The notes under the pieces are model-generated. The model was not told the origin of the DNA, made no database searches, and saw nothing but the letters and a program-made list of their open reading frames with translations. From contig CABMGO010000006.1 of assembly GCA_902385655.1 (NCBI GenBank), forward strand, positions 10,329-74,328: DNA of 64,000 nucleotides. The letters are read 5' to 3'. A program made the translations under genes and the position numbers. Of this stretch, positions 9,027 through 62,188 are shown piece after piece. This stretch comes from an uncultured archaeon (GTDB taxonomy: Archaea > Nanobdellota > Nanobdellia > Pacearchaeales > GW2011-AR1). How positions within the stretch are numbered: position 1 is the stretch's first letter; each line of letters starts with the position of its first letter.

Positions 9027-9107
9027 GCTCACATGGCACAATGGTACTGCAATGGTCTCGAACACCATGCCCTCACGGGCTTCCCGGTCCGATTCCGGGT
9101 GTGAGCG
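9027..9107 (+). tRNA. tRNA-Ser (anticodon CGA)
   Basis: Acceptor GCTCACA/TGTGAGC, anticodon stem ATGGT/ACCAT with loop CTCGAAC, long variable arm GCCC-TCAC-GGGC, T arm CCCGG-TCCGATT-CCGGG, discriminator G. Confidence 0.85.
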
Positions 9108-13876: not shown

Positions 13877-13945
13877 TAACTTGATTTCTCAAAATATATC
13901 TTAGACTATCAATAATATTATAAACAAATATTCTTTTTGAGTAAA

Positions 13946-14632
13946 ATGGATCCAATAAAAGAGGCGTTTACCAAAATTAAAGAAGATATTTACTACTTAC
14001 AAGCAGAGCTTGTTTCCCTAAAGCAAGAAATGTCTCTATTAAGATCAGAAAATTCAGCTCTTTCTCAAAAAATTGGTTCGGCAAATAAGGCACTTCCTCC
14101 ATCAAATATATCTTATCCCACAGTTACTCCAACAAATAATCCCACAGTTCCACAGGAAATAAGGGGGTTCCAACCATTAAAAAATGACCTTTCCACAGGA
14201 AATAAGGGGGTTCCAACAGACATATCGACATACAGTCAGACAAACCAACAGACAGACAAATTAGCTATTTTCCCTATAAATAACCTCTCTGAAAACCCAC
14301 TAAATAAGATGCAAGAAACCCTAGAATCTCTCGACAGTATCCGTAAAGAATTACGCCTTAAATTTAAGCGCCTAACGCCTCAAGAAATGCTCGTCTTTTC
14401 AACTCTTTATTCCCTAGAAAATCAAGGTCTAGAAGAGATCACATACAAAGTACTGGCTACTCATTTAAACCTCACAGAATCCTCTATACGAGATTATACT
14501 ACAAAACTACTATCAAAAGGCATTCCTATCAAAAAAATACGTTTGAATAACAAAAAGATAGTTCTAAATGTCTCAGAAGAGCTAAAAAAAATAGCTTCTT
14601 TACCGACGCTAATCAAACTAAGAGAGCTTTAG
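13946..14632 (+). CDS. coiled-coil plus C-terminal wHTH protein
   Basis: N-terminal heptad-rich segment, low-complexity linker, C-terminal LTPQEMLVFSTLYSLE...SSIRDYTTKLLSKG; ATG 13946 (track start 13937 is TTG). Confidence 0.55.
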   Translation: MDPIKEAFTKIKEDIYYLQAELVSLKQEMSLLRSENSALSQKIGSANKALPPSNISYPTVTPTNNPTVPQEIRGFQPLKNDLSTGNKGVPTDISTYSQTNQQTDKLAIFPINNLSENPLNKMQETLESLDSIRKELRLKFKRLTPQEMLVFSTLYSLENQGLEEITYKVLATHLNLTESSIRDYTTKLLSKGIPIKKIRLNNKKIVLNVSEELKKIASLPTLIKLREL

Positions 14633-16704: not shown

Positions 16705-17097
16705 ATGGATCCGCTACCTGAGTATATTTGTCCGATTAGAAAACTCAAACTTTCTTTAAATCATTCTGTTGGTGAAAGATGCTATTTAGGTTCAGCTGGA
16801 AATATTTGCAATGCTTCTGGAAAACTTTGCGATATTCTTGAAGCACATGAACTTGCTCAAAGCTCAGATCATTCTCGCCTAATGGAAGTAGGGATAGAAT
16901 CTGATCCTTCTTCAGGCAATCCGGTCCCGTACGTTCGACCTGTAAGATCTTCACAAAGCCAACCAAAGTGCACAACTTCTCCACATATAACAACTTCTCC
17001 ACATATAACAACTTCTCCGCATATAGATTCCACATCGCCAGGTTATAACCCTTATAAAAAAGGAGGAGATAATCCCGATCCAAGAAAAAGGTATTAA
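16705..17097 (+). CDS. Cys-rich repeat protein (4-Cys module plus TTSPHI x3 tandem repeat)
   Basis: YICP-x13-C-x9-C-x5-C...ELAQS module; SQSQPKCTT; 18-nt tandem repeat in frame. Confidence 0.5.
   Translation: MDPLPEYICPIRKLKLSLNHSVGERCYLGSAGNICNASGKLCDILEAHELAQSSDHSRLMEVGIESDPSSGNPVPYVRPVRSSQSQPKCTTSPHITTSPHITTSPHIDSTSPGYNPYKKGGDNPDPRKRY
16972..17025 (+). repeat. 18-nt tandem repeat x3 (ACAACTTCTCCACATATA), in frame
   Basis: Units 16972-16989, 16990-17007, 17008-17025 (one A to G change in unit 3); encodes TTSPHI x3. Confidence 0.9.
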
Positions 17098-17586: not shown

Positions 17587-18054
17587 ATGGTGAAAAAAGA
17601 GAGAAAAGCACAGCTTAGTAAGAAAGATGTTAACAAAGATAACCTAAGTGCACAAAAGAAGTTCCTTTATCATGGCTCCAATAAAGAGATCAAATTATTA
17701 ATTCCAAAACAACCTTCAGATCCAAAAAAAGAAAATTCCCTTAAAGCCGTTTATGCAACAGACAGGAAAGATTATGCCTTAGCCATGGGTCTAACTAACC
17801 AAAAAGGCTCAACTAGTTTTATAACTTTTAATCCTGTTAAACTCCATTTTGTTAGGGGCAAGCCCAAAATGAAATTTATTTACTTGCATTATCTTTCTCC
17901 AAAAAATTTCAAAAAAAACTCAGAAAACCAATATCTTTCTTTTAAACCTGTAGAGTCCATATTAATTGAAAAATACTTTCCTTATGAACTTAGGCACCTT
18001 TGGACAAAGTCTAACAAAAAAGAATTAAATAAATTCCTTAAAAATAAAAAATGA
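17587..18054 (+). CDS. hypothetical protein with possible H-Y-E ADP-ribosyltransferase-like motifs
   Basis: FLYHGS, KAVYATD, ENQYLSF spaced like the PARP/ART H-Y-E triad; stop overlaps recombinase ATG (ATGA). Confidence 0.25.
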   Translation: MVKKERKAQLSKKDVNKDNLSAQKKFLYHGSNKEIKLLIPKQPSDPKKENSLKAVYATDRKDYALAMGLTNQKGSTSFITFNPVKLHFVRGKPKMKFIYLHYLSPKNFKKNSENQYLSFKPVESILIEKYFPYELRHLWTKSNKKELNKFLKNKK

Positions 18055-18836
18055 TCCATCAGTCTACAACCAAAATTCCTAAAGTAGCAATTTATTCAAG
18101 AGTTTCTACTGAAGAGCAGGCAAGAGAAGGTTTGAGCGTGGATGCTCAGATTGAAAAGTGTGAGGCGTACTGTAAAGCCAGAGGTTGGGAAATTTATCGA
18201 GTTTACAAAGATGCAGGTTTTTCAGCAGGCAGTTTGGACAGGCCTTCCATGGAGTTAATGCTTAGAGATGCAAATGAGTCAAAGTTCAATATAATTCTTG
18301 TTTATAAAATCGATCGTTTTTCAAGAAAGTTAAGAGATTTAATTTTAGTCTTAGAGAGCCTAAAAGAAAAAGACATTAATTTTACTTCAGTCACAGAACA
18401 AATCGATACTACTTCTGCTATGGGTGAAGCCTTCTTTCAAATTATCGGAGTTTTCGCACAACTAGAAAGAGGAATGGTGAAAGAGAGAGTTGAACTGGCA
18501 TTTGATAAAAAAATTGGTATGGGGGAATCTCTTTCTCGGGCCCCTCTTGGTTATGTTTATGAAAACAAAAAATTAGTTCCAGACCCTCAAAATTCTGAAA
18601 AATTAAAAGAGCTTTTTGAAATGGCAGAAATGGGAATAAGTTACAAAGTTATCTGCGAAAAATTTAACATACAACCCTCAACATTTTACTCAATAATCAA
18701 AAATCCTGTTTATACTGGAAAAGTGAAATACAAGGGAGAGCTTTACAAAGGATCGCACAAACCTCTCATTTCTGAAGAAGTTTTCAATAAATTAAATTCT
18801 CTCGAAACTAGAAATGGATCAACAAGCTCGGAATAA
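18051..18836 (+). CDS. serine recombinase (resolvase catalytic domain plus recombinase domain)
   Basis: AIYSRVSTEEQ catalytic Ser region, DRFSR, then SRAPLGY...YTGKV recombinase-domain pattern. Confidence 0.85.
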   Translation: MIHQSTTKIPKVAIYSRVSTEEQAREGLSVDAQIEKCEAYCKARGWEIYRVYKDAGFSAGSLDRPSMELMLRDANESKFNIILVYKIDRFSRKLRDLILVLESLKEKDINFTSVTEQIDTTSAMGEAFFQIIGVFAQLERGMVKERVELAFDKKIGMGESLSRAPLGYVYENKKLVPDPQNSEKLKELFEMAEMGISYKVICEKFNIQPSTFYSIIKNPVYTGKVKYKGELYKGSHKPLISEEVFNKLNSLETRNGSTSSE

Positions 18837-19419
18837 AATTTTAGAAAGAGACAAGTTCTGTTGTCAAAAGTGCGGTTTTGCAGAAGAATCAGAACTAGAA
18901 ACTCATCATATTACTCCTCAAGTTTTAGGTGGAGAAGAAAAAGAAGAAAATTTAATCACTCTCTGTTCGATTTGTCATCATTATGCTCCAGATTCTGCAA
19001 AGGAATTCAAAATATATCTTTCTGAAAAACTAGACTGGAAAATTCTAGAAACCTTTAGGAGGTCAAATCGTTCAATTTCCAAAAAAACAAGACAAGGTAT
19101 GGAAAGAAATATCTCTGAAGGAAAAGTAATTTCCCGAGCACCTTTGGGATACAAAATCATAAACAAGGAACTAGTCATTGATCCAGAAAAATCTGAGCAG
19201 TTGAAATCCATTTTCAAAGAATTCTCAGAAACTCAAATTAGTCTTACGCAACTTGGAAAAAAACATGGTTTTACTACTTCAGGCATAAAAAAACTGCTAA
19301 TGAACACCTCCTACCTCGGAAAGGTTAAATTTGCAGATCATGAAAACGACGGGACTCATCCAGCAATTATTGATCAAGAACTTTTTGATAAAGCGCAAAA
19401 TAGGTTTCTAAACATTTGA
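18814..19419 (+). CDS. HNH endonuclease fused to a serine-recombinase-type DNA-binding (recombinase) domain
   Basis: CQKCGF...HHITP...GG...NLITLCSICHH (HNH), then ISRAPLGY...NTSYLGKVKF; overlaps upstream recombinase gene by 23 nt. Confidence 0.7.
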   Translation: MDQQARNKILERDKFCCQKCGFAEESELETHHITPQVLGGEEKEENLITLCSICHHYAPDSAKEFKIYLSEKLDWKILETFRRSNRSISKKTRQGMERNISEGKVISRAPLGYKIINKELVIDPEKSEQLKSIFKEFSETQISLTQLGKKHGFTTSGIKKLLMNTSYLGKVKFADHENDGTHPAIIDQELFDKAQNRFLNI

Positions 19420-23201: not shown

Positions 23202-23738
23202 ATGGTTTGTGAGAAATGTGGTTATCAAGATGTAAAAGAGATTGAAAAATTCAATTTTCCCCTTTGCCAATTTTGTAATTTTTTTGCCCCAGAAGAAGAA
23301 GATAATTTTACTTTTTATTTAAACGAAAAAACAGATTGGAAACTTTTAGATACTTTTAGAAAATACGGTCAGACTTTTGGAAGCAAACAAAAAGCCGGAA
23401 TGAACGAAAAAGCAAAACAAGGCAAACTTGTTACTCGAATTGCTCTCGGTTACTCTCTGCAAAATGGAGAACTTATTCCGAATGAAATGTCTTCAAAAGT
23501 ACATTCGATATTTAGAACATTCAATGAAAAAAACTTTTCTTTAAATAGTATGGCTAAACACTATGGTCTTTCTGTAAATGGATTAAAAAAAGTTTTAAAA
23601 AACAGAACTTATTTGGGAGAGATAAAATTTGATGGAAGAATACATAAAGGAAATCATAAACCTTTAATCAGTCCAGAAATTTTTTACGCAGTCCAAAGAA
23701 AATTACAAGAAATAAGTAGAAAGAAAAAACAGGCTTAA
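23202..23738 (+). CDS. zinc-ribbon (degenerate HNH) plus recombinase-domain protein, paralog of 18814..19419
   Basis: CEKCGY...CQFCNFFAP aligns with the HNH of the paralog but lacks HH/N; FYLNEKTDWKLLDTFRK and IALGY...NRTYLGEIKF conserved. Confidence 0.6.
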   Translation: MVCEKCGYQDVKEIEKFNFPLCQFCNFFAPEEEDNFTFYLNEKTDWKLLDTFRKYGQTFGSKQKAGMNEKAKQGKLVTRIALGYSLQNGELIPNEMSSKVHSIFRTFNEKNFSLNSMAKHYGLSVNGLKKVLKNRTYLGEIKFDGRIHKGNHKPLISPEIFYAVQRKLQEISRKKKQA

Positions 23739-32872: not shown

Positions 32873-34081
32873 TCATTCGTATCTTAATGCTTGAACTACG
32901 TTTATCTTTGAGGCCCTTATAGCAGGTAATACTCCTGAAACTGCTCCCGTTATTGTTGCAAATAAAATACAACCAATAAACAAGGAATAAGAATAATGTG
33001 GAGATAAGAATCCCCATCCTAAATTTACCAAGATAGTATTCGCAATTGAAGTAATTAAAAATCCCCATCCTACTCCAATAACTCCTGCAACAAATCCTAA
33101 AAATCCCGATTCAAATAAGAAAATATTAAATATTTCCGAATTCTTAGCACCAATCGCCTTTATGATTCCGATTTCTTTAAATCTCTCAAGCACAGAAGTA
33201 ATCATCGTATTAGAAGTATTTATTGCGGAAACTAAAACCGAGATCAATGCAATCAAAATTACAAAACCAATCACGATATTTAATGCACTTGTATATGACT
33301 TAACTAGATCTTCAAAAGACTGGACATAAAAATCTTCTTTTCCCTCTTTAAGGTTTCTAGAATTTCTCAAACTTCTTGTAATTGCATCGACAGTCGAAGG
33401 TATTTTTGTTTTGTCCACTTTTGCAACTATCCAAGAGAATCCCTTTATATCGGAGTATAATTTTTTCATACTGTCTGCAGTGAGATACACATTTGAATCA
33501 TCTTGGGGATTTCCTACCGGTGCATAAAAACCAGCCACTCGAAAATCTTTGCCCTCTATCGTGATTTTATCATTTAGGGATAAACCTTTTGAAAATATTT
33601 TGTTGTCCAATTTGTAGTCATACCCTAATGTAACCATTCCATCATCGCCTCTTTGTAATTCTCGTCCACTTTCAATACGGATGTCGGTGATTTGCATGAC
33701 TAACGGATTTTGTGGATCGTATCCACTTACAAAAATATATTTTTGCTCATCTCTTTTTTCAACTTTACCTATTTTTATATAAACTCCTGTTGCACTATAA
33801 ACTCCATTTGATTTTTCAACTGCACGAACATCTTGTTCTGTCAAATAAAAAGTATCATCTAATCCAAAACCTCCCATGCCTTTTGGTTGAATCATCACTT
33901 TATCAGAAGAGCCTCCTGCAGCAACAGAATCTATGTAATCATAAAGTCCCCAACCAAAACTGATAAAAATAAATATCGTAGATATTCCTAAGAAAATAGA
34001 AAGAATAGTCAATAGGCTTCTTGTTTTTCTATGTGCAATATTATTCAAAGAATATTTTATGTTTTCTAAACTAAGTGCCAT
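32873..34081 (-). CDS. ABC transporter permease, MacB/FtsX type
   Basis: N-terminal TM, large extracytoplasmic domain, C-terminal FtsX-like 3-TM module with RFKEIGIIKAIGA. Confidence 0.8.
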   Translation of the reverse strand: MALSLENIKYSLNNIAHRKTRSLLTILSIFLGISTIFIFISFGWGLYDYIDSVAAGGSSDKVMIQPKGMGGFGLDDTFYLTEQDVRAVEKSNGVYSATGVYIKIGKVEKRDEQKYIFVSGYDPQNPLVMQITDIRIESGRELQRGDDGMVTLGYDYKLDNKIFSKGLSLNDKITIEGKDFRVAGFYAPVGNPQDDSNVYLTADSMKKLYSDIKGFSWIVAKVDKTKIPSTVDAITRSLRNSRNLKEGKEDFYVQSFEDLVKSYTSALNIVIGFVILIALISVLVSAINTSNTMITSVLERFKEIGIIKAIGAKNSEIFNIFLFESGFLGFVAGVIGVGWGFLITSIANTILVNLGWGFLSPHYSYSLFIGCILFATITGAVSGVLPAIRASKINVVQALRYE

Positions 34082-34232
34082 TTGTGAAACTTCTCAAATT
34101 TAATTTAGAGTAAAGAGGTTCGCAAGTTTGCGACTTTTGCGTAAAGCAAATGAATCGACTTGTTCGATGCTTTATGGAGCAAACGCTTACCTTATTGACA
34201 ACTACGACTGAGAGGAGTTTAGTGTTTGTCAT
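34071..34232 (-). CDS. small ORF (53 aa) spanning repeat R2; coding status doubtful
   Basis: MTNTKLLSVVVVNKVSV...; starts 1 nt after upstream permease stop (TAA-A-ATG), ends 11 nt inside the next gene. Confidence 0.2.
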   Translation of the reverse strand: MTNTKLLSVVVVNKVSVCSIKHRTSRFICFTQKSQTCEPLYSKLNLRSFTNGT

Positions 34233-35466: not shown

Positions 35467-36174
35467 TTATTTTCTCCTAGTAACTTTCTCTAGCTGGCCA
35501 TCTCGGATCCAGTAAACAATTTCAGCATGTTTTTGTGCCAGTTCGGGCGAGTGGGTTACCATAATTATTGTCCTTCCTTTTTTATGAAGCTCATCAAGAA
35601 ATTTCATAACTATATCTCCAGTTTTAGTATCCAAATTTCCTGTAGGTTCGTCCGCTAAAATAACTTCAGGGTCATTAGCTAAAGAACGAGCAATTGCAAC
35701 TCTTTGTTGTTGTCCTCCAGAAAGTTGGTTAGGATAGTGATCCATTCTGTCTTGAAGTTCAACGAGTTTCAATAAGCTTTCAGCTTTCTTTTCTCTTTCT
35801 TCAAAACTAACCCCTTGGAATAACATCGGGAGCATAATATTTTCTTTTGCAGTTAGGTTAGGAATTAAATTAAAACTCTGAAAAATAAATCCAATTTTTT
35901 TCCCTCTTATTTGCGCAAGGTCGGATTCATGTAACTTTGAAATATCATTATTATCTAAAAAAATTTTTCCATATGTCGGGACATCCAAGCTACCTACAAG
36001 ATTCATTGCAGTAGATTTTCCCGAACCAGAAGGACCCATAATTGCAACGAATTCTCCTTTTTTTATGTCCAAAGTCAAGTGATCGAGTGCATGGACTCTC
36101 GCTTGGCCCATCTTATATATCTTGTGAACATCTCTTAACCTAATAATTACTTCTGATTTTTCTCTCTTTTTCAT
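35467..36174 (-). CDS. ABC transporter ATP-binding protein (MacB/LolD type)
   Basis: Walker [10 protein letters not shown], signature LSGGQQQR, Walker B ILADEP; ATG 36174 (track start 36201 is a TTG inside hairpin 1 of R3). Confidence 0.9.
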
Positions 36175-36285
36175 TTTGACAATTTCCGAAGGAGTTGGCA
36201 AGGTTACAACTTTATGGCGTAACCGCTATCGGATTTTTTCGATCGAACCCTAGGTTCGAAATCATTCGAAAAACGTCCTATCAGC
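36175..36285 (-). repeat. structured intergenic module, copy R3 (in a divergent intergenic region)
   Basis: Short hairpin 1 36176-36182/36195-36201 with UUCG loop in gene sense, hairpin 2 GGTTAC/GTAACC, CGCTATC box, hairpin 3 36243-36259 inside TTTTTCGA/TCGAAAAA outer stem. Confidence 0.65.
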
Positions 36286-36345
36286 CAAACCCTATATTAG
36301 TTTTAATATCAAAACCTTTAAAAACACTCCTAAAATTGATTTAGT

Positions 36346-36543
36346 ATGATAATCCCAGTAAGATGTTTTTCATGTGGAAAGCCAATTGCTCACTTGTGGA
36401 ATCAATACAAGGAAAAAGTAGCTAAGGGCGAAGATCCAAAAAAAGTTTTCGAAGAACTTGGTTTAGACAGATATTGCTGCAGAGCAATTTTCTTAGGGCA
36501 AGTTGACAACTTAGAATTAGTTAACAAATTCAAGAAATATTAA
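36346..36543 (+). CDS. rpoN: DNA-directed RNA polymerase subunit N (Rpo10)
   Basis: MIIPVRCFSCGKPI...YCCR. Confidence 0.9.
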   Translation: MIIPVRCFSCGKPIAHLWNQYKEKVAKGEDPKKVFEELGLDRYCCRAIFLGQVDNLELVNKFKKY

Positions 36544-37077: not shown

Positions 37078-37104
37078 TTTTCTTTAACACCTCGAGAATA
37101 TAAG

Positions 37105-37217
<113 letters not shown>

Positions 37218-38767: not shown

Positions 38768-38850
38768 GTGGGGGTGCCGGAGCGGTCAAACGGGCAAGAT
38801 TTAAGCTCTTGTGGCTTTTGCCTTCGGGGGTTCGAATCCTCCCTCCCACA
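38768..38850 (+). tRNA. tRNA-Leu (anticodon TAA)
   Basis: Acceptor GTGGGGG/CTCCCAC, anticodon stem CAAGA/TCTTG, loop TTTAAGC, long variable arm, T arm GGGGG-TTCGAAT-CCTCC, discriminator A. Confidence 0.9.
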
Positions 38851-39441: not shown

Positions 39442-39515
39442 GCCCGGGTAGCTCAATTGGATAGAGCAGTGGCATCCTAAGCCGAAGGTTGGGAGTTCAA
39501 GTCTTCCCTCGGGCG
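39442..39515 (+). tRNA. tRNA-Arg (anticodon CCT)
   Basis: Acceptor GCCCGGG/CTCGGGC, D arm GCTC-AATTGGATA-GAGC, loop ATCCTAA, T arm GGGAG-TTCAAGT-CTTCC; one 27:43 mismatch. Confidence 0.7.
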
Positions 39516-39572: not shown

Positions 39573-39664
39573 GCACTGGTAGTATAATGGTAGTATAGTT
39601 GGTTTCCAAGTATTAAATTGTACGAAACGACCAATTGGCTCGGGTCCGATTCCCGACCGGTGCA
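39573..39664 (+). tRNA. tRNA-Gly (anticodon TCC) with a 21-nt intron
   Basis: Acceptor GCACTGG/CCGGTGC, D arm GTAT-AATGGTA-GTAT, anticodon stem GTTGG/CCAAT, loop TTTCCAA followed by 21 extra nt (39610-39630), T arm TCGGG-TCCGATT-CCCGA. Confidence 0.7.
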
Positions 39665-53146: not shown

Positions 53147-54169
53147 TCATTTTAACTCCCTTTCATATTCTTTGGAAACCCTTTCCCAATCAAATTTCAC
53201 ACTATACTTTCTAGCTCCATCCCCCATCTTTTTTCTTCTAGTTTTGTCCATTTTCAATAAGGTAGCCTTTTCAACAAACTCTTCAAAGTTGTTTACAACA
53301 AATCCTGTTTTATTGTTGATAATAACCTCGGGAATAGATCCTTTGTTATACCCAATACTCGGTTTCCCGCACGCACCTGCCTCGACAAAAATTAAACCAA
53401 ATCCTTCCCATTCAGATGCTGAAACGAAAAATGAACAACTCTGATAATTTCTAACTAAATCTTCTCTCGAGACTCTGCCTAGAAATCCAACAGGAGCATT
53501 AATTCTTTCAGTCAAACTTTTTAACTTTTTCTCTTCTAAACCGTATCCGATAATTCTCAATGGAAAATTTATTTTTTTACTTAATTTTATCAGCTGGTCT
53601 ACTCTTTTATGTTTTTCAAGTCTCCCAACATAAAGCATATAGGCTCCGTCTTTCTTTATCGGCTTAAATTCTTCAGATACTCCGAGCAGGATAACTTTTA
53701 CTTTTCTGGCACCCATATTTTTGAGTTCTCCTGCCAAATAATTCGAGATAGTGATAATCTTATTTTCTCTCATGCCTCTTTGGAAATATTTAGAAGCCAG
53801 TTTTCTAAATATATTCTTTGTTGGTGGAGAGCCTAGCCATATATAATTTATTTTTTCATTTTTCCTAAACGCAGAAGATAATCCTCCATGAAATACTAGA
53901 ACTTTATCGAATGAAAATCTCTTATCTAGCTCCTTGAATTGATCTTGCAGAATTCTCATCTTTTTGAAGTATCCAAAGTCTGTAACTTTTCCTGTAAATA
54001 ACTTCTGAAGATTTAGTTTAACAAATTTAAAATTCTTCTCAGGAATGTTAGTCTCTCCTGCTAAAATAAAAACCTCATGCTTTTTTCCAAGCCTCTTCGC
54101 AAGCTCATACATCACTACATCTGCTCCTCTGCCCTGCAGAAATGTATCGTTTATAAAAGCAATTTTCAT
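53147..54169 (-). CDS. family 4 (GT-B) glycosyltransferase
   Basis: EGFGLIFVEAGACGKPSIG; ATG 54169 (track start 54193 is a TTG inside the leader hairpin). Confidence 0.8.
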   Translation of the reverse strand: MKIAFINDTFLQGRGADVVMYELAKRLGKKHEVFILAGETNIPEKNFKFVKLNLQKLFTGKVTDFGYFKKMRILQDQFKELDKRFSFDKVLVFHGGLSSAFRKNEKINYIWLGSPPTKNIFRKLASKYFQRGMRENKIITISNYLAGELKNMGARKVKVILLGVSEEFKPIKKDGAYMLYVGRLEKHKRVDQLIKLSKKINFPLRIIGYGLEEKKLKSLTERINAPVGFLGRVSREDLVRNYQSCSFFVSASEWEGFGLIFVEAGACGKPSIGYNKGSIPEVIINNKTGFVVNNFEEFVEKATLLKMDKTRRKKMGDGARKYSVKFDWERVSKEYERELK

Positions 54170-54264
54170 TTTGCGAATCTGCCTCCTTCGCAAGTTAGTG
54201 AGTTTACCGAACTAACGCTATCATTCTTGACGACTTTGAGCGAAGCGAATTTAATTGAAGTCAT
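54166..54264 (-). CDS. small ORF b (32 aa) in repeat unit a
   Basis: MTSIKFASLKVVKNDSVSSVNSLTCEGGRFAK; TGA overlaps GT4 ATG (ATGA). Confidence 0.3.
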   Translation of the reverse strand: MTSIKFASLKVVKNDSVSSVNSLTCEGGRFAK

Positions 54265-54359
54265 TTTGCGAATCTGTTCCCTTCGCAAGTTAACGAGCTA
54301 GTCGAGTTAACGCTATCTAATTTTACAACTGCGAATGCAATGAGTTTAGTGTTTGTCAT
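54261..54359 (-). CDS. small ORF c (32 aa) in repeat unit b
   Basis: MTNTKLIAFAVVKLDSVNSTSSLTCEGNRFAK; TGA overlaps the ATG of sORF b (ATGA). Confidence 0.3.
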   Translation of the reverse strand: MTNTKLIAFAVVKLDSVNSTSSLTCEGNRFAK

Positions 54360-54447
54360 TTTGCGAATCTGCCTCCTTCGCAAGATAGCGAAGAACTAAG
54401 CTATCGCTAACGTTCTTGAAAACTTTTGTTAAAAATAATGTTTTCAT
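54346..54447 (-). CDS. small ORF d (33 aa) in repeat unit c
   Basis: MKTLFLTKVFKNVSDSLVLRYLAKEADSQNDKH; starts 1 nt after AglB stop (TAA-A-ATG), overlaps sORF c by 14 nt. Confidence 0.25.
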   Translation of the reverse strand: MKTLFLTKVFKNVSDSLVLRYLAKEADSQNDKH

Positions 54448-54448
54448 T

Positions 54449-57163
54449 TTATGCGAATAGCTTGTCTTCAGATCCATAAATTCCATCCGTAGCCATGAAC
54501 TCGGAATGCGCTTCCGTTCCAATAGGATAATTTACCTTCCAGATCTTGACTGGGCCTCTAAACCCGTTGAAATAAATCATATCGCCAATATTCGCGCCCT
54601 GCTGTTTCAATGCCTTAACCACATAATCATCTTCAGAAACACTTTCCTGTAGTGTAGGGTACTTATTCAAAGGATCCCCCATCAAATACACTTGTGCAAA
54701 TAAGCTGTTGCTGACTCGAGGGGACAAGTAAATTCCTGCACCAACCGCGTTTATTGAAATCTGTCCTGTTGAAGACTGCGAAACTTCCGGCATTAATCTA
54801 AACGTGGAATCTATTCCTGATCTAAAGTCCATAATTTGACCATTGAAATAAACGTATCTAACCGGTATCCTATACTGGTTATTATTGTAAATATAAACTG
54901 CAGTAGGCTGGCCTATTACTGTTCCTGTTTTATTCATTGTGCCAATATTCACTATAACTCCTGCAATGTATGCCTTGTAACTTGCAATTCCATTTGTGTC
55001 GTAAGTTGGCCCAGGTATAAAACTTCCATTGTAGTTTATATCTTCATCAACAAAACTTCCTCCGGTGTAGACGAGGGTATTTCCTGTAGCTGTTTCTCTT
55101 GATTGGGTGTTATCTACTACCATTGCTGTTGGAGAAGAAAATCTATCCCAATTAAGATCACTTCCAATTTTTGAATATGCTCCATACTTGCCTAAGTCAG
55201 AAGGGTCGATAACTAGATAAGAAACATTATGGGTTTTCATAAAACTAAATGCCGTTTCTGGCTTAGGGGTAGTCAAAACATATCTTCCCATCATATAGTT
55301 CCAGTACACATTATAATTTCCACCGTCTAAAACCGTCGTTCTATTCCCAAGTAATTGTATCTGGTATCCATAATCCCACCAGTGTACAAAAATATCTGCT
55401 GGATTTGTATTATTTCTGACCCAAGACATTGCTAATTGCCACTGGTCGTTTGCTATTGGTCCCATTCCTGCAGCACCATATTTCGTTATCTGATAACTTC
55501 CAGAAGTATTTGCCAAGGGATTTCCGAATAAACTTATTAAAACTAAGATCAATGCAACTATTGCTGCTATTATTGAAACTGTTCTCAACGACGAGTCTTT
55601 TAATGATTTAGACTTCTCATAAAGTTGAATAATTGCATATGCAACTGCAAATGCGACAAATGTGTAAATAACAAATATAACTCTTACTGCCGATCTAGTA
55701 GACAAAAGCATCACAAACATCCAAGCGAACAAGAAAATATTTTTAGATTCAACATTAAATTTATCATTGAAATATAACCATCCAAAATATGCTGCAAAAA
55801 TTCCAAATGAAACGATATACGCCAACTGGCTAATTAGACTTGTTCCATTGAATATACTCGTTTCAGACGTTCTGCTAAACATCATTCCCAAAACTGCGAT
55901 TGTCCAAGATAAAATAAATCCGAATTTGTGCTTTCTAGACTTTATTCCTTTTGCAGTTTCAACTCCAATGAAAATCATTCCAATAACAAACAACCAAAAG
56001 ATTACTGGAGTATACTGAGAGATTAGATCAGATATATACGGTTGTTGGTAATATGCAACCGTCAAATTTACTCTTGCTAATCCAAAAGGAAATAAAATCT
56101 GAGTGTAGATTGCCTTTATCATTGTAAATGGATTTTTCCCAATAATAAATAATCCGACAAATCCTGCGATAATCGTAATCAGTAAAGAGTATAATAATCG
56201 ATATTTAGATTTTGCAAACTTCATTTTTCCTTCATATCTCAAAATAAGATAGTCAACTATAGAAAATACAAAAAATACCGAAGTTGCAATTCCATAATTA
56301 CTTATAAACTTCTGATACATTTCTGAAAAGTGATATCCAAAAGAAGGCATAAGAACTGTTGATGCTACTATCCAACAAAAAGTGAACACAATCATCTTTT
56401 GTTTTTTAGCAAGATCTTTTTCATCTACTCCAAATAAATAATATACTATCGAAGCAATAGGAAAGATCATAAAAACAAAGTTAGAAGCTCCACTCCAAGA
56501 CCAGAATGAAAACGCGAATGCAACTCCATTGCCTACCCCCCACAGAATTGTCTCTTTCCAACTCTTTCCGAATCTACTCAAGGAAATCGCAAAAACCAGC
56601 ATCGCTAAAAACATAAACGGCATACCTAACGACTCGTGGCTAGACACTCCTCCAGTCGTTCTACTTAAATAAGAGGTAGAATAGGCTAAGAGTGCGCTTG
56701 CAATTGTTGCTGCAACTTTAGAACTCGATAAATACCAGCATAATATAAAGAAGATAATTAATCCCAATGCAAAGGCTGCAACCGGATAAAGAACATCAAC
56801 TTGATCTAAAGTAATTGAAGAGCCGACAGCGTGTAATGTTTTATATGTCATAACCAACATTTTTGGAAGCATCTCTTGAGCGAAAGTTACATTCAGTCCC
56901 GGATTCCTCATCGTGTCTACTCCATTTATAGTTCCTTTTTCCAATAATGTCTGAGCAACTCTTAACTCATAACAAGCATCAGGGTCTGCAGGAATATATT
57001 TTCCCGTTGTAGAATCTTTCAGCAAGTCTAAGTTACCTAGCCTTAAAGAAGTTGAAGAAATTAAAATTATTAAAAAAATAAGAACTGTAATTCCTATTTG
57101 AAATTTTTTGTTAGACAATATTTCTTTACTTGTTTTCAAAATCTCTTTTGTTTTCTTATTCAT
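54449..57163 (-). CDS. aglB: archaeal oligosaccharyltransferase AglB (STT3 family)
   Basis: 904 aa, about 13 N-terminal TM helices, WWDYGY motif (HWWDYGYQI), large C-terminal soluble domain. Confidence 0.9.
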   Translation of the reverse strand: MNKKTKEILKTSKEILSNKKFQIGITVLIFLIILISSTSLRLGNLDLLKDSTTGKYIPADPDACYELRVAQTLLEKGTINGVDTMRNPGLNVTFAQEMLPKMLVMTYKTLHAVGSSITLDQVDVLYPVAAFALGLIIFFILCWYLSSSKVAATIASALLAYSTSYLSRTTGGVSSHESLGMPFMFLAMLVFAISLSRFGKSWKETILWGVGNGVAFAFSFWSWSGASNFVFMIFPIASIVYYLFGVDEKDLAKKQKMIVFTFCWIVASTVLMPSFGYHFSEMYQKFISNYGIATSVFFVFSIVDYLILRYEGKMKFAKSKYRLLYSLLITIIAGFVGLFIIGKNPFTMIKAIYTQILFPFGLARVNLTVAYYQQPYISDLISQYTPVIFWLFVIGMIFIGVETAKGIKSRKHKFGFILSWTIAVLGMMFSRTSETSIFNGTSLISQLAYIVSFGIFAAYFGWLYFNDKFNVESKNIFLFAWMFVMLLSTRSAVRVIFVIYTFVAFAVAYAIIQLYEKSKSLKDSSLRTVSIIAAIVALILVLISLFGNPLANTSGSYQITKYGAAGMGPIANDQWQLAMSWVRNNTNPADIFVHWWDYGYQIQLLGNRTTVLDGGNYNVYWNYMMGRYVLTTPKPETAFSFMKTHNVSYLVIDPSDLGKYGAYSKIGSDLNWDRFSSPTAMVVDNTQSRETATGNTLVYTGGSFVDEDINYNGSFIPGPTYDTNGIASYKAYIAGVIVNIGTMNKTGTVIGQPTAVYIYNNNQYRIPVRYVYFNGQIMDFRSGIDSTFRLMPEVSQSSTGQISINAVGAGIYLSPRVSNSLFAQVYLMGDPLNKYPTLQESVSEDDYVVKALKQQGANIGDMIYFNGFRGPVKIWKVNYPIGTEAHSEFMATDGIYGSEDKLFA

Positions 57164-60663: not shown

Positions 60664-62028
60664 TTATAATCCGAACATTCCCCTCATTGCAGGGTTCATA
60701 TCGACCGCATGCTGTTGAGCAATATTTTGGTATAATTGATATAAGATCATGATTGCAAGTAAAACTGCTGTTCCTCCAACAAGTGCTCCCATTAAATCTG
60801 CAAAACTAGCAAGAAGACCTACTGCTGCTCCGCTCATGACTGTTAAAGGTGTAACATACCTATTCAAAATAGATTCTAATATTCTCTCATCTTTCCTAAA
60901 TCCTGGAATACTTAATCCAGAATGCAAAATATTTCTAGCCTGGTTCGAAGCGTCTTGTCCAGAAGTTTTCATCCAGAAATAAGAAAACATTATCGAGAAA
61001 CCAACATAGAAAATAATGTGCCCTACTGCCTGAACTGCGTAAATCCATCTGAAGCTACCAGTAACTAAATACTGGAGTAATGGTGTTGAGTGAATCCAAT
61101 ATGCAAAACCTGAAATTGGTTGTCCATTAGAAAATCCTCCTAAGAAAGTAGCATGTCCTACCGCATTTTCAACTAAAGAACCAATCAATTGAATATTTGC
61201 TGCAAGAGCAGAAACTAAAATAACTGGAAGAACTCCCGTATAGAAAAATTGTAGTGGCCATCTTATTCCATATCCTCTTATTCTATCAAATGATAGAGGT
61301 ATTTCTACTTTAAGAGACTGTGTCCAGACCACTGCTAAGAAAAGTGCAGCTGTAATTAAAATAGAGAATAATGCCAATGCAAAACCTGCCGAGTCTCCAG
61401 AGATTATAGACGAGAATAAAACCAAGAATTTACCGGAAGGTTCGAATCCTCCAGAAGTTCCTAAAAACTGAAATAACTGCGCAAATAATCTCCAACCGAT
61501 ACCTGCCGCGATGAAAAGAGAAGTTCCTGATCCAAATCCCCATTTCTGTACAACATCATCCATAAAAACAATTAATAAACCGCCAAGGAAAAGTTGTAAA
61601 ATAACTAGAAATTCGAATCCTGCCTTAGCTTCTAATCCTCTCATCATTACATAGATTATTGCTTCAAAAACAATGAATACTATCGTAAGTAATTTTTGTA
61701 CTGCTTGGAAATATTTTTTCCCTTCCGGGTCTTTCAAATCTATTCTGATTATTTGTGCTCCAACAAGAAGTTGTAAAATCATAGAAGCTAAAACAATGGG
61801 GCCGATACCTAAAGAAATAATCGAACCAAAATCCGTTCCAAGTAAGATCGCTAAATACTGGAATCTTGACAATGCCGCACTAGCCAAGCCATAAAGAGGA
61901 ATATTTGCTAGAACAAAAAAAGCAGTAAGCACAATTAAAGACCATTTAAGTTTAACACCAAAAGATAATTTTTTTTCCTCTGGTTTTTTTACTTCAGGCA
62001 AATTGTGCAATATATCCATGAAAGCCAT
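60664..62028 (-). CDS. secY: preprotein translocase subunit SecY
   Basis: 454 aa, 10 TM, archaeal SecY pattern; downstream of rpl30-rpl15. Confidence 0.9.
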   Translation of the reverse strand: MAFMDILHNLPEVKKPEEKKLSFGVKLKWSLIVLTAFFVLANIPLYGLASAALSRFQYLAILLGTDFGSIISLGIGPIVLASMILQLLVGAQIIRIDLKDPEGKKYFQAVQKLLTIVFIVFEAIIYVMMRGLEAKAGFEFLVILQLFLGGLLIVFMDDVVQKWGFGSGTSLFIAAGIGWRLFAQLFQFLGTSGGFEPSGKFLVLFSSIISGDSAGFALALFSILITAALFLAVVWTQSLKVEIPLSFDRIRGYGIRWPLQFFYTGVLPVILVSALAANIQLIGSLVENAVGHATFLGGFSNGQPISGFAYWIHSTPLLQYLVTGSFRWIYAVQAVGHIIFYVGFSIMFSYFWMKTSGQDASNQARNILHSGLSIPGFRKDERILESILNRYVTPLTVMSGAAVGLLASFADLMGALVGGTAVLLAIMILYQLYQNIAQQHAVDMNPAMRGMFGL

Positions 62029-62160
62029 TTTACCAAACTCTCCTAAAATTATTTAATTTGAGAGTTGGTAAGGCAAAAAATGCGAAGCATTGACTGCCGC
62101 TAACGGGTTTTTTCGATCGAGCCAACAGCTCGAAATCATTCGAAAAACGCCCTACTTTTA
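62029..62160 (-). repeat. structured intergenic module, copy R5 (directly upstream of secY ATG)
   Basis: Hairpin 1 62030-62042/62060-62071, hairpin 2 with AATGC-GAA-GCATT, CGCTAAC box, hairpin 3 62117-62133 inside TTTTTCGA/TCGAAAAA outer stem. Confidence 0.7.
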
Positions 62161-62188
62161 GTTGATTTATATTACTCACTTTAAACAT
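62030..62188 (-). CDS. small ORF (52 aa) spanning repeat R5; coding status doubtful
   Basis: MFKVSNINQLKVGRFSNDFELLARSKKPVSGSQCFAFFALPTLKLNNFRRVW; stop then A then secY ATG (TAA-A-ATG). Confidence 0.2.
   Translation of the reverse strand: MFKVSNINQLKVGRFSNDFELLARSKKPVSGSQCFAFFALPTLKLNNFRRVW

Follow-up and report, generated by a model that had tools for sequence, protein, structure and literature searches.

The 64-kb stretch of the archaeal contig CABMGO010000006.1 analysed here (the window, at its full length) carries three tandem, structured units, U1 to U3, between the gene of an AglB/STT3-type oligosaccharyltransferase and that of a GT4-family glycosyltransferase. These units are short-form members of a dispersed family of structured, gene-sense elements located at start codons in a Pacearchaeota-like (DPANN) lineage. 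The best reading of the family, and one that we hold to be likely, is that of a start-codon-targeting interspersed element similar in function to the repetitive units interspersed in mycobacterial genomes (MIRUs), in which a small open reading frame (sORF) would keep the downstream gene translated by termination-reinitiation. The window has seven copies of the family, about one per 9 kb, and other Pacearchaeota-like contigs have at least ten.

The 279 nt between the stop codon (54449-54451) of the AglB gene (904 aa, 54449-57163, minus strand; Pfam STT3-PglB_core 31.5 bits, cutoff 23) and the start codon (54169) of the GT4 gene (340 aa, 53147-54169, minus strand; Pfam Glycos_transf_1, E=2.2e-35) hold U1 (54360-54448), U2 (54265-54359) and U3 (54170-54264), the last of which abuts the GT4 start. 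In a repeat search the start-to-start spacing of the units is 95 and 95 nt, and the 3' end of each reads CTTGCGAA-N9-TTCGCAA-A-ATG, which confirms the first-pass annotation of this DNA in its description of three tandem units with TTGCGAA-N9-TTCGCAA-A-ATG ends between the AglB stop and the GT4 ATG. The pattern TTGCGAA-N9-TTCGCAA occurs three times in the window, always in the array, with 0.32 occurrences expected and one of 100 shuffled sequences reaching three. Its two arms form a 7-bp stem, referred to as helix B, that closes 1 nt before the ATG of sORF2 in U1 (54361-54383), of sORF3 in U2 (54266-54288) and of the GT4 gene in U3 (54171-54193), all on the minus strand; the 9-nt loop is GGAGGCAGA in U1 and U3 and GGGAACAGA in U2. 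Pairwise identity of the units is 45-68% overall and 23-26 of 27 positions in the last 27 nt, a concentration that points to constraint on the hairpin and the A-rich start context. The low overall identity is also the reason why the array is not reported by Tandem Repeats Finder. U1 is the most diverged unit, its 5' part being unlike that of U2 and U3, and the first 21 nt of U2 match the copy at 34 kb described below. In U1 an upstream CUUCGC can also pair with a GCGAAG overlapping the 5' strand of helix B (54377-54395), and the resulting alternative hairpin competes with helix B in the minimum-free-energy fold; none is seen in U2 or U3.

Three sORFs on the minus strand accompany the units, with the coordinates and peptides reported earlier: sORF1 (33 aa, 54346-54447), sORF2 (32 aa, 54261-54359) and sORF3 (32 aa, 54166-54264). 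The first starts 1 nt after the AglB stop, which is followed by A-ATG, and the stops of the second and third overlap the starts of sORF3 and of the GT4 gene as ATGA. The unbroken relay previously proposed for this junction is upheld at these two ATGA overlaps, whereas sORF1 overlaps the start of sORF2 by 14 nt, in another frame and not as ATGA. sORF1 also lies outside the peptide frame of the family, as its frame relative to the hairpin differs from that of sORF2 and sORF3. The proposal that the hairpins of the units sequester a Shine-Dalgarno sequence is not borne out, as the GGAGG is exposed in the loop, one unit has no GGAGG, and the genome hardly uses such signals.

A comparison with the longer relatives of the units reveals the fold of the family. 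A full-length copy measures about 150-170 nt from its own ATG to the ATG of the gene and consists, in this order, of a 5' segment opening with the sORF ATG, stem-loop A, the motif G(A/U)UAGCGG, a middle helix and helix B. The consensus of seven aligned long copies has 126 positions and is made up of three parts. Stem-loop A comprises GGG/CCC and U5CGA/UCGA5 together with a bulge of 6 nt and a hairpin of 7 bp; in the second part the invariant G(A/U)UAGCGG precedes a middle helix of 5 bp; and the third, helix B, has in the long form 7 bp, one bulged base and another 5 bp and ends UU...AA-A-AUG. RNAalifold predicts 35 pairs from these seven copies, 18 of them with compensatory changes, and helix B alone appears as TTGCGAA/TTCGCAA, TTACCAA/TTGGTAA, TTGCGAT/ATCGCAA and TTACAAA/TTTGTAA. 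Paired bases fill 94.6% of the cells of this alignment compared to 35-57% when the 3' partners are slid, and none of 500 column shuffles reaches the observed values. With 16 copies, in an alignment that was fitted to the covariance model itself, 94.8% of cells are paired (35-54% with slid partners) and double changes are found at 23 of the 35 pairs, as against 2-9 when slid. U1 to U3 retain G(A/U)UAGCG, a middle helix that covaries, 7 bp of proximal helix B and the A-AUG; most of stem-loop A is missing, as is distal helix B, so that the latter helix is here reduced to 7 bp and a 9-nt loop. Their middle helices, all on the minus strand, are GATAGC...GCTATC after the motif GTTAGCG in U1 (54384-54405, from the cmsearch alignment), GTTAAC...GTTAAC after GATAGCG in U2 (54289-54311, from the model alignment) and GTTAGT...ACTAAC, also after GATAGCG, in U3 (54194-54216); the pairs GAUAG/CUAUC, GUUAA/UUAAC and GUUAG/CUAAC covary among the units, with two compensatory pairs between U3 and U2. 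Absence of stem-loop A defines the short form, to which X34 and L039a (see below) also belong. In long-form copies GGAG at -12 to -14 is paired with CUCC in distal helix B, an arrangement closer to the Shine-Dalgarno sequestration originally envisaged than anything in U1 to U3. That all copies are strictly in gene sense and fused to ATGs speaks for a fold that acts in the transcript, and this fold may serve either the spread of the element or a host factor. A K-turn or a bulge-helix-bulge in stem-loop A and helix B was inspected by eye and found to be a misfit with the covarying register.

The copies in the window represent five independent loci, X1, X34, X36, X62 and the U1-U3 array, all on the minus strand. 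A covariance model built from long copies only (R1), from which U1 to U3 had been left out, recovers U3, U2, U1 and X34 in 97 kb with E-values of 8.9e-5, 2.7e-4, 0.0023 and 0.011 (32.2, 29.9, 25.5 and 22.4 bits, respectively). X62 (62026-62188, R1 127.1 bits) is a long form before SecY, with a structured part at 62026-62152 and a 52-aa sORF (62030-62188) that begins 21 nt downstream of a TTTATAAA box and terminates as TGG-TAA-A-ATG. X1 (1248-1430, R1 109.7 bits), also of the long form, lies between the genes for the PolD large subunit and a radical-SAM enzyme and has its structured part at 1258-1391 and a 60-aa sORF with a TAA-A-ATG start. X36 (36172-36278, R1 105.8 bits), a long form with a short distal hairpin, lies in the 5' leader of an ABC ATPase gene and has no sORF, as it contains no ATG and an in-frame TAA. 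X34 (34071-34232), located in the same ABC-transporter operon between two MacB/FtsX permease genes, is a short-form relative with a 53-aa sORF that follows the upstream stop as TAA-A-ATG and runs 8-10 nt beyond the downstream ATG. The earlier suggestion that the N-terminus MTNTKL recurs in a copy at this site is borne out, as a profile of the three units matches 34071-34232 (nhmmer E=1.2e-6) in addition to the R1 hit. In a survey of start-codon contexts the sequences before the genes at 1260 and 34081 are alike, both containing TTCGCAAAATG. Divergent from the ABC-transporter operon, at about 36345-36540 on the plus strand, is a small unlisted gene that by eye resembles RNA polymerase subunit N/Rpb10.

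Outside the window copies are found at loci L034, L035/L038, L037, L039, L040-L044 and L047. A metagenome scan with the signature of domain A gave five more members and one chance match, and a profile search of public data with the sORF peptides gave nine more, called 'hypothetical proteins'; the contigs of four of these were fetched, and each has a copy. Every copy is in gene sense with its 3' end 1 nt before the ATG of the gene (a TAATG overlap in L042). The downstream genes are unrelated (SecY, ABC ATPase/permease, GT4, radical SAM, ERCC4, SBDS and others), and identical subtypes precede non-orthologous genes in different genomes. On the 2.4-kb contig L039 three copies of three subtypes each end at the start of one of three consecutive genes, and one of them, L039a, is the same kind of short form as U1 to U3 in another genome. 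Composite elements are found in L042 (94-301, encoding P0129 of 73 aa) and in P0130 (94 aa). In L042 a first unit, with stem-loop A and a mini version of helix B (TTGCAAA...TTTGCAA), is followed not by AAAATG but by AAAAAG, after which comes a second partial unit, about 1.5 units in all, and such composites imply that tandem or partial duplication also occurs outside the window. Despite internal insertions P0129 and P0130 keep a single frame open, a result biased by their having been ascertained as proteins.

Named homologs of GT4 and SecY carry the labels Pacearchaeota, Nanoarchaeota or Nanoarchaeia, and the G+C content of the window is 34%. The GT4 of the window itself, looked up by exact sequence, matched no public contig. 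A search of the copies against Rfam 15 returned no family at gathering score or E<=5, and no paper describing the family was found in the literature. Scanning a genome collection for TTGCGAA-N9-TTCGCAAAATG gave 29 single matches in unrelated bacteria, about the number expected by chance, and none in archaea; viral contigs gave no match to the domain-A pattern. Three Idiomarina/Idiomarinaceae genomes (L012, L018, L022) have one exact TTGCGAA-N9-TTCGCAAAATG match each, probably one conserved orthologous site that is unrelated to the archaeal family.

As no orthologs are shared between the metagenome loci and the window, the occupancy of sites was examined through relatives of SecY and AglB. The AglB junction is array-free in all five relatives examined, and AglB abuts or overlaps the next gene: in L001, L002 and L004, in which GT4 is 69-73% identical, AglB and GT4 are joined as TAAAATG or ATGA, and in the syntenic L045 and L046 an epimerase gene follows within 2 nt. 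The AglB orthologs of L001, L045 and L046 contain PF02516 STT3. An ancestral regulatory leader of the agl operon is contradicted by all five. At the SecY start, relatives with 90%, 87% and 84% identity show the L15 stop, TT(C/T)C(C/T)GTCG, TTTATAAA, 21 nt and the ATG of SecY, and the site is empty. It is filled in the window and in a 92% relative (L047). In the window both the TTTATAAACGAATTT box and the 21-nt spacing recur, with the ATG at this position opening the sORF, and the SecY ATGGCTTTC lies 160 nt further downstream; the shared box and spacing imply that the sORF ATG of X62 is located at the ancestral leaderless start of SecY. In 55 kb of syntenic DNA from the relatives neither the long-form model nor the short-form profile detects a copy. 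The pattern of empty and filled sites indicates that the elements are insertions rather than ancestral leaders, and suggests mobility in a mechanistic sense. The SecY starts of L047 (1-90) and the window (62026-62188) carry differing subtypes, an X36-like CUCC-UUC-GGAG form in L047 and a long-loop form with an sORF in the window, which reflects either two independent insertions or the replacement of one copy by another. The gene after AglB is a UDP-GlcNAc 2-epimerase in L045 (17924-19036) and L046 (8007-9146) and GT4 in the window, L001, L002 and L004, and AglB is 54-69% identical among relatives in which SecY is 84-92% identical; the N-glycosylation cluster evidently evolves fast. More glycosyltransferase genes lie downstream of GT4 in the window.

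Among 62 long ORFs of the window TATA-like hexamers peak at -30 to -27 from the ATG (24 in this bin compared to 0-4 elsewhere), the spacing of co-oriented neighbours is most often -4 (ATGA) or +1 (TAA-A-ATG), and GGAGG is found upstream of 6 of 59 genes, at 12-18 nt and never at 5-10 nt. The host genome looks built around leaderless mRNAs. Among the 13 copies found by DNA or structure search, to which the following two counts refer, nine have an ATG-initiated sORF that spans the element. The frame is open in ten of the 13, including L039c, which is open and has no ATG, where 1.5 are expected, and stops, counted over 420 codons in each frame, number 0 in the sORF frame and 80 in the other two, although the copies are homologous and these open-frame statistics do not represent independent samples. 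At all five intercistronic loci the sORF starts at +1 or -1 from the upstream stop; at five of six promoter-proximal loci a TATA-like box is located at -27 to -32, within 2 nt of the genome-wide leaderless peak, and the sixth sORF has GAGGTGAT 3 nt upstream. At the other end, considering all copies that bear an sORF, the stop is located at +1, -1 or -4 in 10 of 14 junctions (TAA-A-ATG in seven, TAATG in one, ATGA in two), the remainder having a +4 spacing (L038) or an overlap of 11-14 nt (U1 to U2, X1, X34). The same codon-position test as applied here to U2 and U3 has too few in-register columns in the long copies to bear on selection (5/19, 9/19 and 11/18). The peptides themselves show no sign of constraint: the differences between U2 and U3 number 10, 9 and 11 at codon positions 1, 2 and 3, peptide segments change completely where helices covary (FELLAR, FEPRVR, FVPKER, KLSVW), and a search of the sORF peptides against Pfam gave no match. 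This points to an absence of selection at the peptide level, the fold and the open frame being what appears conserved. The view that the sORFs are by-products of a duplicated structured element, offered earlier as the alternative to a relay, is partly right in view of this and of the shifted frame of U1. The relay idea itself gains in breadth, as its geometry is family-wide, from the spanning sORFs and stop spacings to the SecY start that has been taken over, and loses the notion of a leader specific to agl.

In a host with leaderless or stop-start coupled starts, a gene that receives an insertion at its start codon would normally be silenced. Translation of the sORFs, followed by reinitiation, is suggested by the geometry and by the evolutionary pattern as the means of averting this. 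The sORF of the element would come to use the native signal for initiation, be it the leaderless 5' AUG or a site just after an upstream stop; ribosomes translating through the folded element would then melt helix B, terminate at or next to the AUG of the gene, and reinitiate there. At the AglB-GT4 junction the tandem copies would form a relay from AglB through sORF1, sORF2 and sORF3 to GT4, in an array that may have arisen by duplication of a unit or by repeated insertion at successive sORF start codons. Termination-reinitiation has been demonstrated in archaea according to PMC6728339, as cited in PMC12548453, and short ORFs can deliver ribosomes, with the MIRUs as a precedent (PMC12548453). 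Since each step of the relay is presumably less than fully efficient, the array should lower the output of GT4 relative to AglB, and this could contribute to the rapid diversification of the glycosylation cluster among relatives.

A number of observations, in addition to the relatedness of the copies noted above, weigh against this interpretation. X36, L037, L039b and L039c, all promoter-proximal, and probably L047 have no ATG-initiated sORF, so that a relay cannot explain the translation of the genes behind the first four; in these copies the promoter box implies a transcript start 15-25 nt before stem-loop A, with no AUG. Overlaps of 11-14 nt, as found at three junctions, are less efficient for coupling according to a review (PMC12548453). 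A 'transparent' insertion gives no reason for a covarying stem-loop A and GAUAGCGG, neither of which a relay as such would need, and stem-loop A is absent from the short form. The counts of G.U (15) and A.C (11) in the pairs do not differ (strand-asymmetry test, p=0.56) and are no proof of action as sense RNA over DNA. With regard to mobility, neither the repeat search nor the alignments contain terminal inverted repeats. ATG or AAAATG is present at both ends of the insertion and is possibly borne by the element, and the sORF start as a duplicate of the 5' end of the downstream gene is not distinguished in true versus mismatched pairs (p=0.09). No IS200/IS605, TnpB or reverse transcriptase was identified among 46 window ORFs scanned, which leave out 26-31 kb and 46-49 kb; the only candidates met among them are the recombinase ORFs at 18-19.4 kb and 23.2 kb described below. 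By eye, a duplication between U1 and the 5' end of GT4 looks suggestive.

Some of these observations are the ones that a host cis-regulatory leader RNA would explain. In such a leader the fold (stem-loop A, GAUAGCGG and the middle helix) would bind a protein or a small ligand and gate the start codon via helix B, which would bring many genes under a common post-transcriptional control, the sORFs being secondary. The strong covariation across genomes, the closure of helix B 1 nt before the ATG in every copy, together with the GGAG/CUCC pairing of the long forms, the four copies that function without any sORF, and the presence of one copy on each of the three consecutive genes of L039 are all in line with this explanation. 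We nevertheless regard it as unlikely, as the downstream genes have no common theme, orthologous sites are empty in close relatives, the short form, U1 to U3 among it, does without stem-loop A as the putative sensor, and Rfam holds no matching family. A metabolite riboswitch in particular is ruled out by the heterogeneous downstream genes and the empty orthologous sites. Regulation and mobility could also be combined. The element would then be more than a tolerated parasite, namely a mobile RNA module through which dozens of unrelated genes share a single post-transcriptional control, and the regulon would have been built by transposition of a structured leader. Here a host factor or ligand on stem-loop A and GAUAGCGG might gate reinitiation via helix B, or the RNA might be cut at A|AUG to release leaderless mRNAs; we consider this conceivable but doubtful. 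A cut beside the A that precedes the AUG, giving a leaderless mRNA of the downstream gene, could in addition be the sole function of the element. This RNA processing signal would suit an organism built around leaderless starts, it would account for the copies that lack an sORF, and helix B does end exactly one A before the AUG in every copy; one candidate enzyme would be tRNase Z, with helix B (7+5 bp) as a minihelix-like substrate and the A as a discriminator-like base. It gives no reason why nine of 13 copies keep a frame open that starts properly and stops where coupling is possible, helix B of U1 to U3 has only 7 bp and a 9-nt loop, and the single bulged base on the 3' strand of helix B is by eye a misfit with a minihelix, all of which makes the processing signal quite improbable.

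Reading the sORFs as a genuine family of small-protein genes of 32-60 aa, located between or before other genes, would account for the open frames with credible start signals, for the nine such sORFs that gene callers have annotated in public data and for the similar N-termini of the short forms (MTNTKL..VV..SV). The even spread of U2/U3 differences over the three codon positions, the other frame read by U1, the replacement of peptide segments wherever helices covary, the coincidence of the conserved 'residues' with invariant nucleotides of the fold, the missing Pfam match and the four copies with no ORF render it highly unlikely. That the repeats act as DNA, as a small CRISPR-like array or as palindromic transcription-factor sites 95 bp apart, is suggested by a palindromic 23-nt core repeated at a fixed period, and the strand-asymmetry counts are compatible with it. 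There are only three repeats, squeezed between coupled genes, and the orientation of all copies in gene sense with an end at the ATG is not required of a double-stranded palindrome; as helices beyond the palindrome covary too, a DNA-level feature has next to no chance of being correct. A CRISPR array is ruled out, as the stretches that would be its 'spacers' are homologous to each other and to copies elsewhere.

A start-codon-targeting element that passes ribosomes on to the gene behind it has its closest known counterpart in the MIRUs, which seem to be mobile, have start codons as their insertion sites and contain an ORF with coupling at -4 (PMC12548453). As Supply et al. (1997) are quoted in PMC3184786 and PMC12548453, MIRUs are likewise short (40-100 bp there compared to 95 nt here), occur as many dispersed copies between the genes of operons, in gene orientation and sometimes in tandem arrays, show empty and filled orthologous sites, and have an ORF inside them that adjoins or overlaps the stop and start codons on either side, which keeps the target gene translationally coupled. 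The archaeal family differs in its host, an AT-rich DPANN archaeon instead of a GC-rich actinobacterium, in its three-helix covarying fold, which is outside the MIRU definition, in having long (about 150-170 nt) and short forms, in the use of leaderless starts besides stop-start coupling, in the lack of an ORF in about one third of the copies, and in a commonest spacing of +1 (TAA-A-ATG) rather than -4. It may be described as an analogue of the MIRUs, not as a member, and given the host domain and the base composition homology is very unlikely. The spacings ATGA, TAATG and TAA-A-ATG are efficient for termination-reinitiation in the accounts available from PMC6728339 and PMC12548453, and the gene pairs of the window use the same classes. 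The putative upstream partner is in this case a non-conserved sORF borne by a repeat, and not a gene for a functional protein.

Repeats of the REP/BIME and REPIN types and of the MITE type (miniature transposable elements with inverted repeats) are also short, structured, interspersed, intergenic, polymorphic in presence or absence and often co-transcribed (PMC3184786, PMC3116915). In contrast to them, the archaeal family has neither terminal inverted repeats nor clear target duplication, is strictly in gene sense and fused to the start codon instead of following stop codons, carries a relay ORF, and has no RAYT or transposase partner identified. Classification as a MITE, which calls for terminal inverted repeats and target-site duplication, was rejected as there are no inverted repeats. 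The leaderless short upstream ORFs of mycobacteria, which bring ribosomes to downstream genes or attenuate them (10.1101/834739; PMC4633059), resemble the promoter-proximal sORFs in being located at the 5' end of the transcript and coupled to the downstream gene. Those ORFs are locus-specific and regulatory and not copies of a dispersed structured repeat. Rickettsia palindromic elements, selfish repeats that persist because their insertions disturb neither reading frame nor expression, are inserted within coding sequences and end up in the protein. The archaeal elements, on the other hand, stay outside the gene and are proposed to hand ribosomes over to it.

DPANN archaea are uncultivated organisms with tiny genomes, in which gene expression is almost unstudied. 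Against this background the family would be the first archaeal counterpart of mycobacterial MIRUs known to us, no Rfam family or paper having matched it, and it would offer a natural experiment on leaderless initiation and termination-reinitiation in archaea and on the intervening structure that is tolerated. The genes affected so far include those for SecY, an ABC transporter, an N-glycosylation transferase and a radical-SAM enzyme. For annotation, the copies are a source of spurious 'hypothetical protein' calls of 32-94 aa and of odd intergenic gaps. MIRUs in the form of variable-number tandem repeats serve in strain typing of tuberculosis, and tandem copies such as the AglB-GT4 array could likewise be variable-number markers for tracking strains in metagenomes.

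Further features of the window lie apart from the family. A serine recombinase (261 aa, Resolvase and Recombinase domains) is encoded at 18051-19419 on the plus strand together with a second ORF that overlaps it on the downstream side and has HNH endonuclease and Recombinase domains, another Recombinase-domain ORF is located at 23202-23738 (plus strand), and a run of plus-strand ORFs with no Pfam matches lies upstream at 13.5-18 kb; these ORFs may represent an integrated element whose large serine recombinase is disrupted. The recombinase region at 18-19.4 kb has no evident link to the repeat family. Tandem repeats are found inside two ORFs with no Pfam match, one of 18 nt in three copies (16972-17025, 97% matches, in ORF 16705-17097) and one of 20 nt (14147-14258, in ORF 13937-14632). 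A lone 5S rRNA gene (37104-37216, minus strand) is located near three plus-strand tRNA genes (38768-38850, 39442-39515 and 39573-39664), one of which is 92 nt long and possibly contains an intron, and another tRNA gene of 81 nt is present at 9027-9107 on the plus strand.

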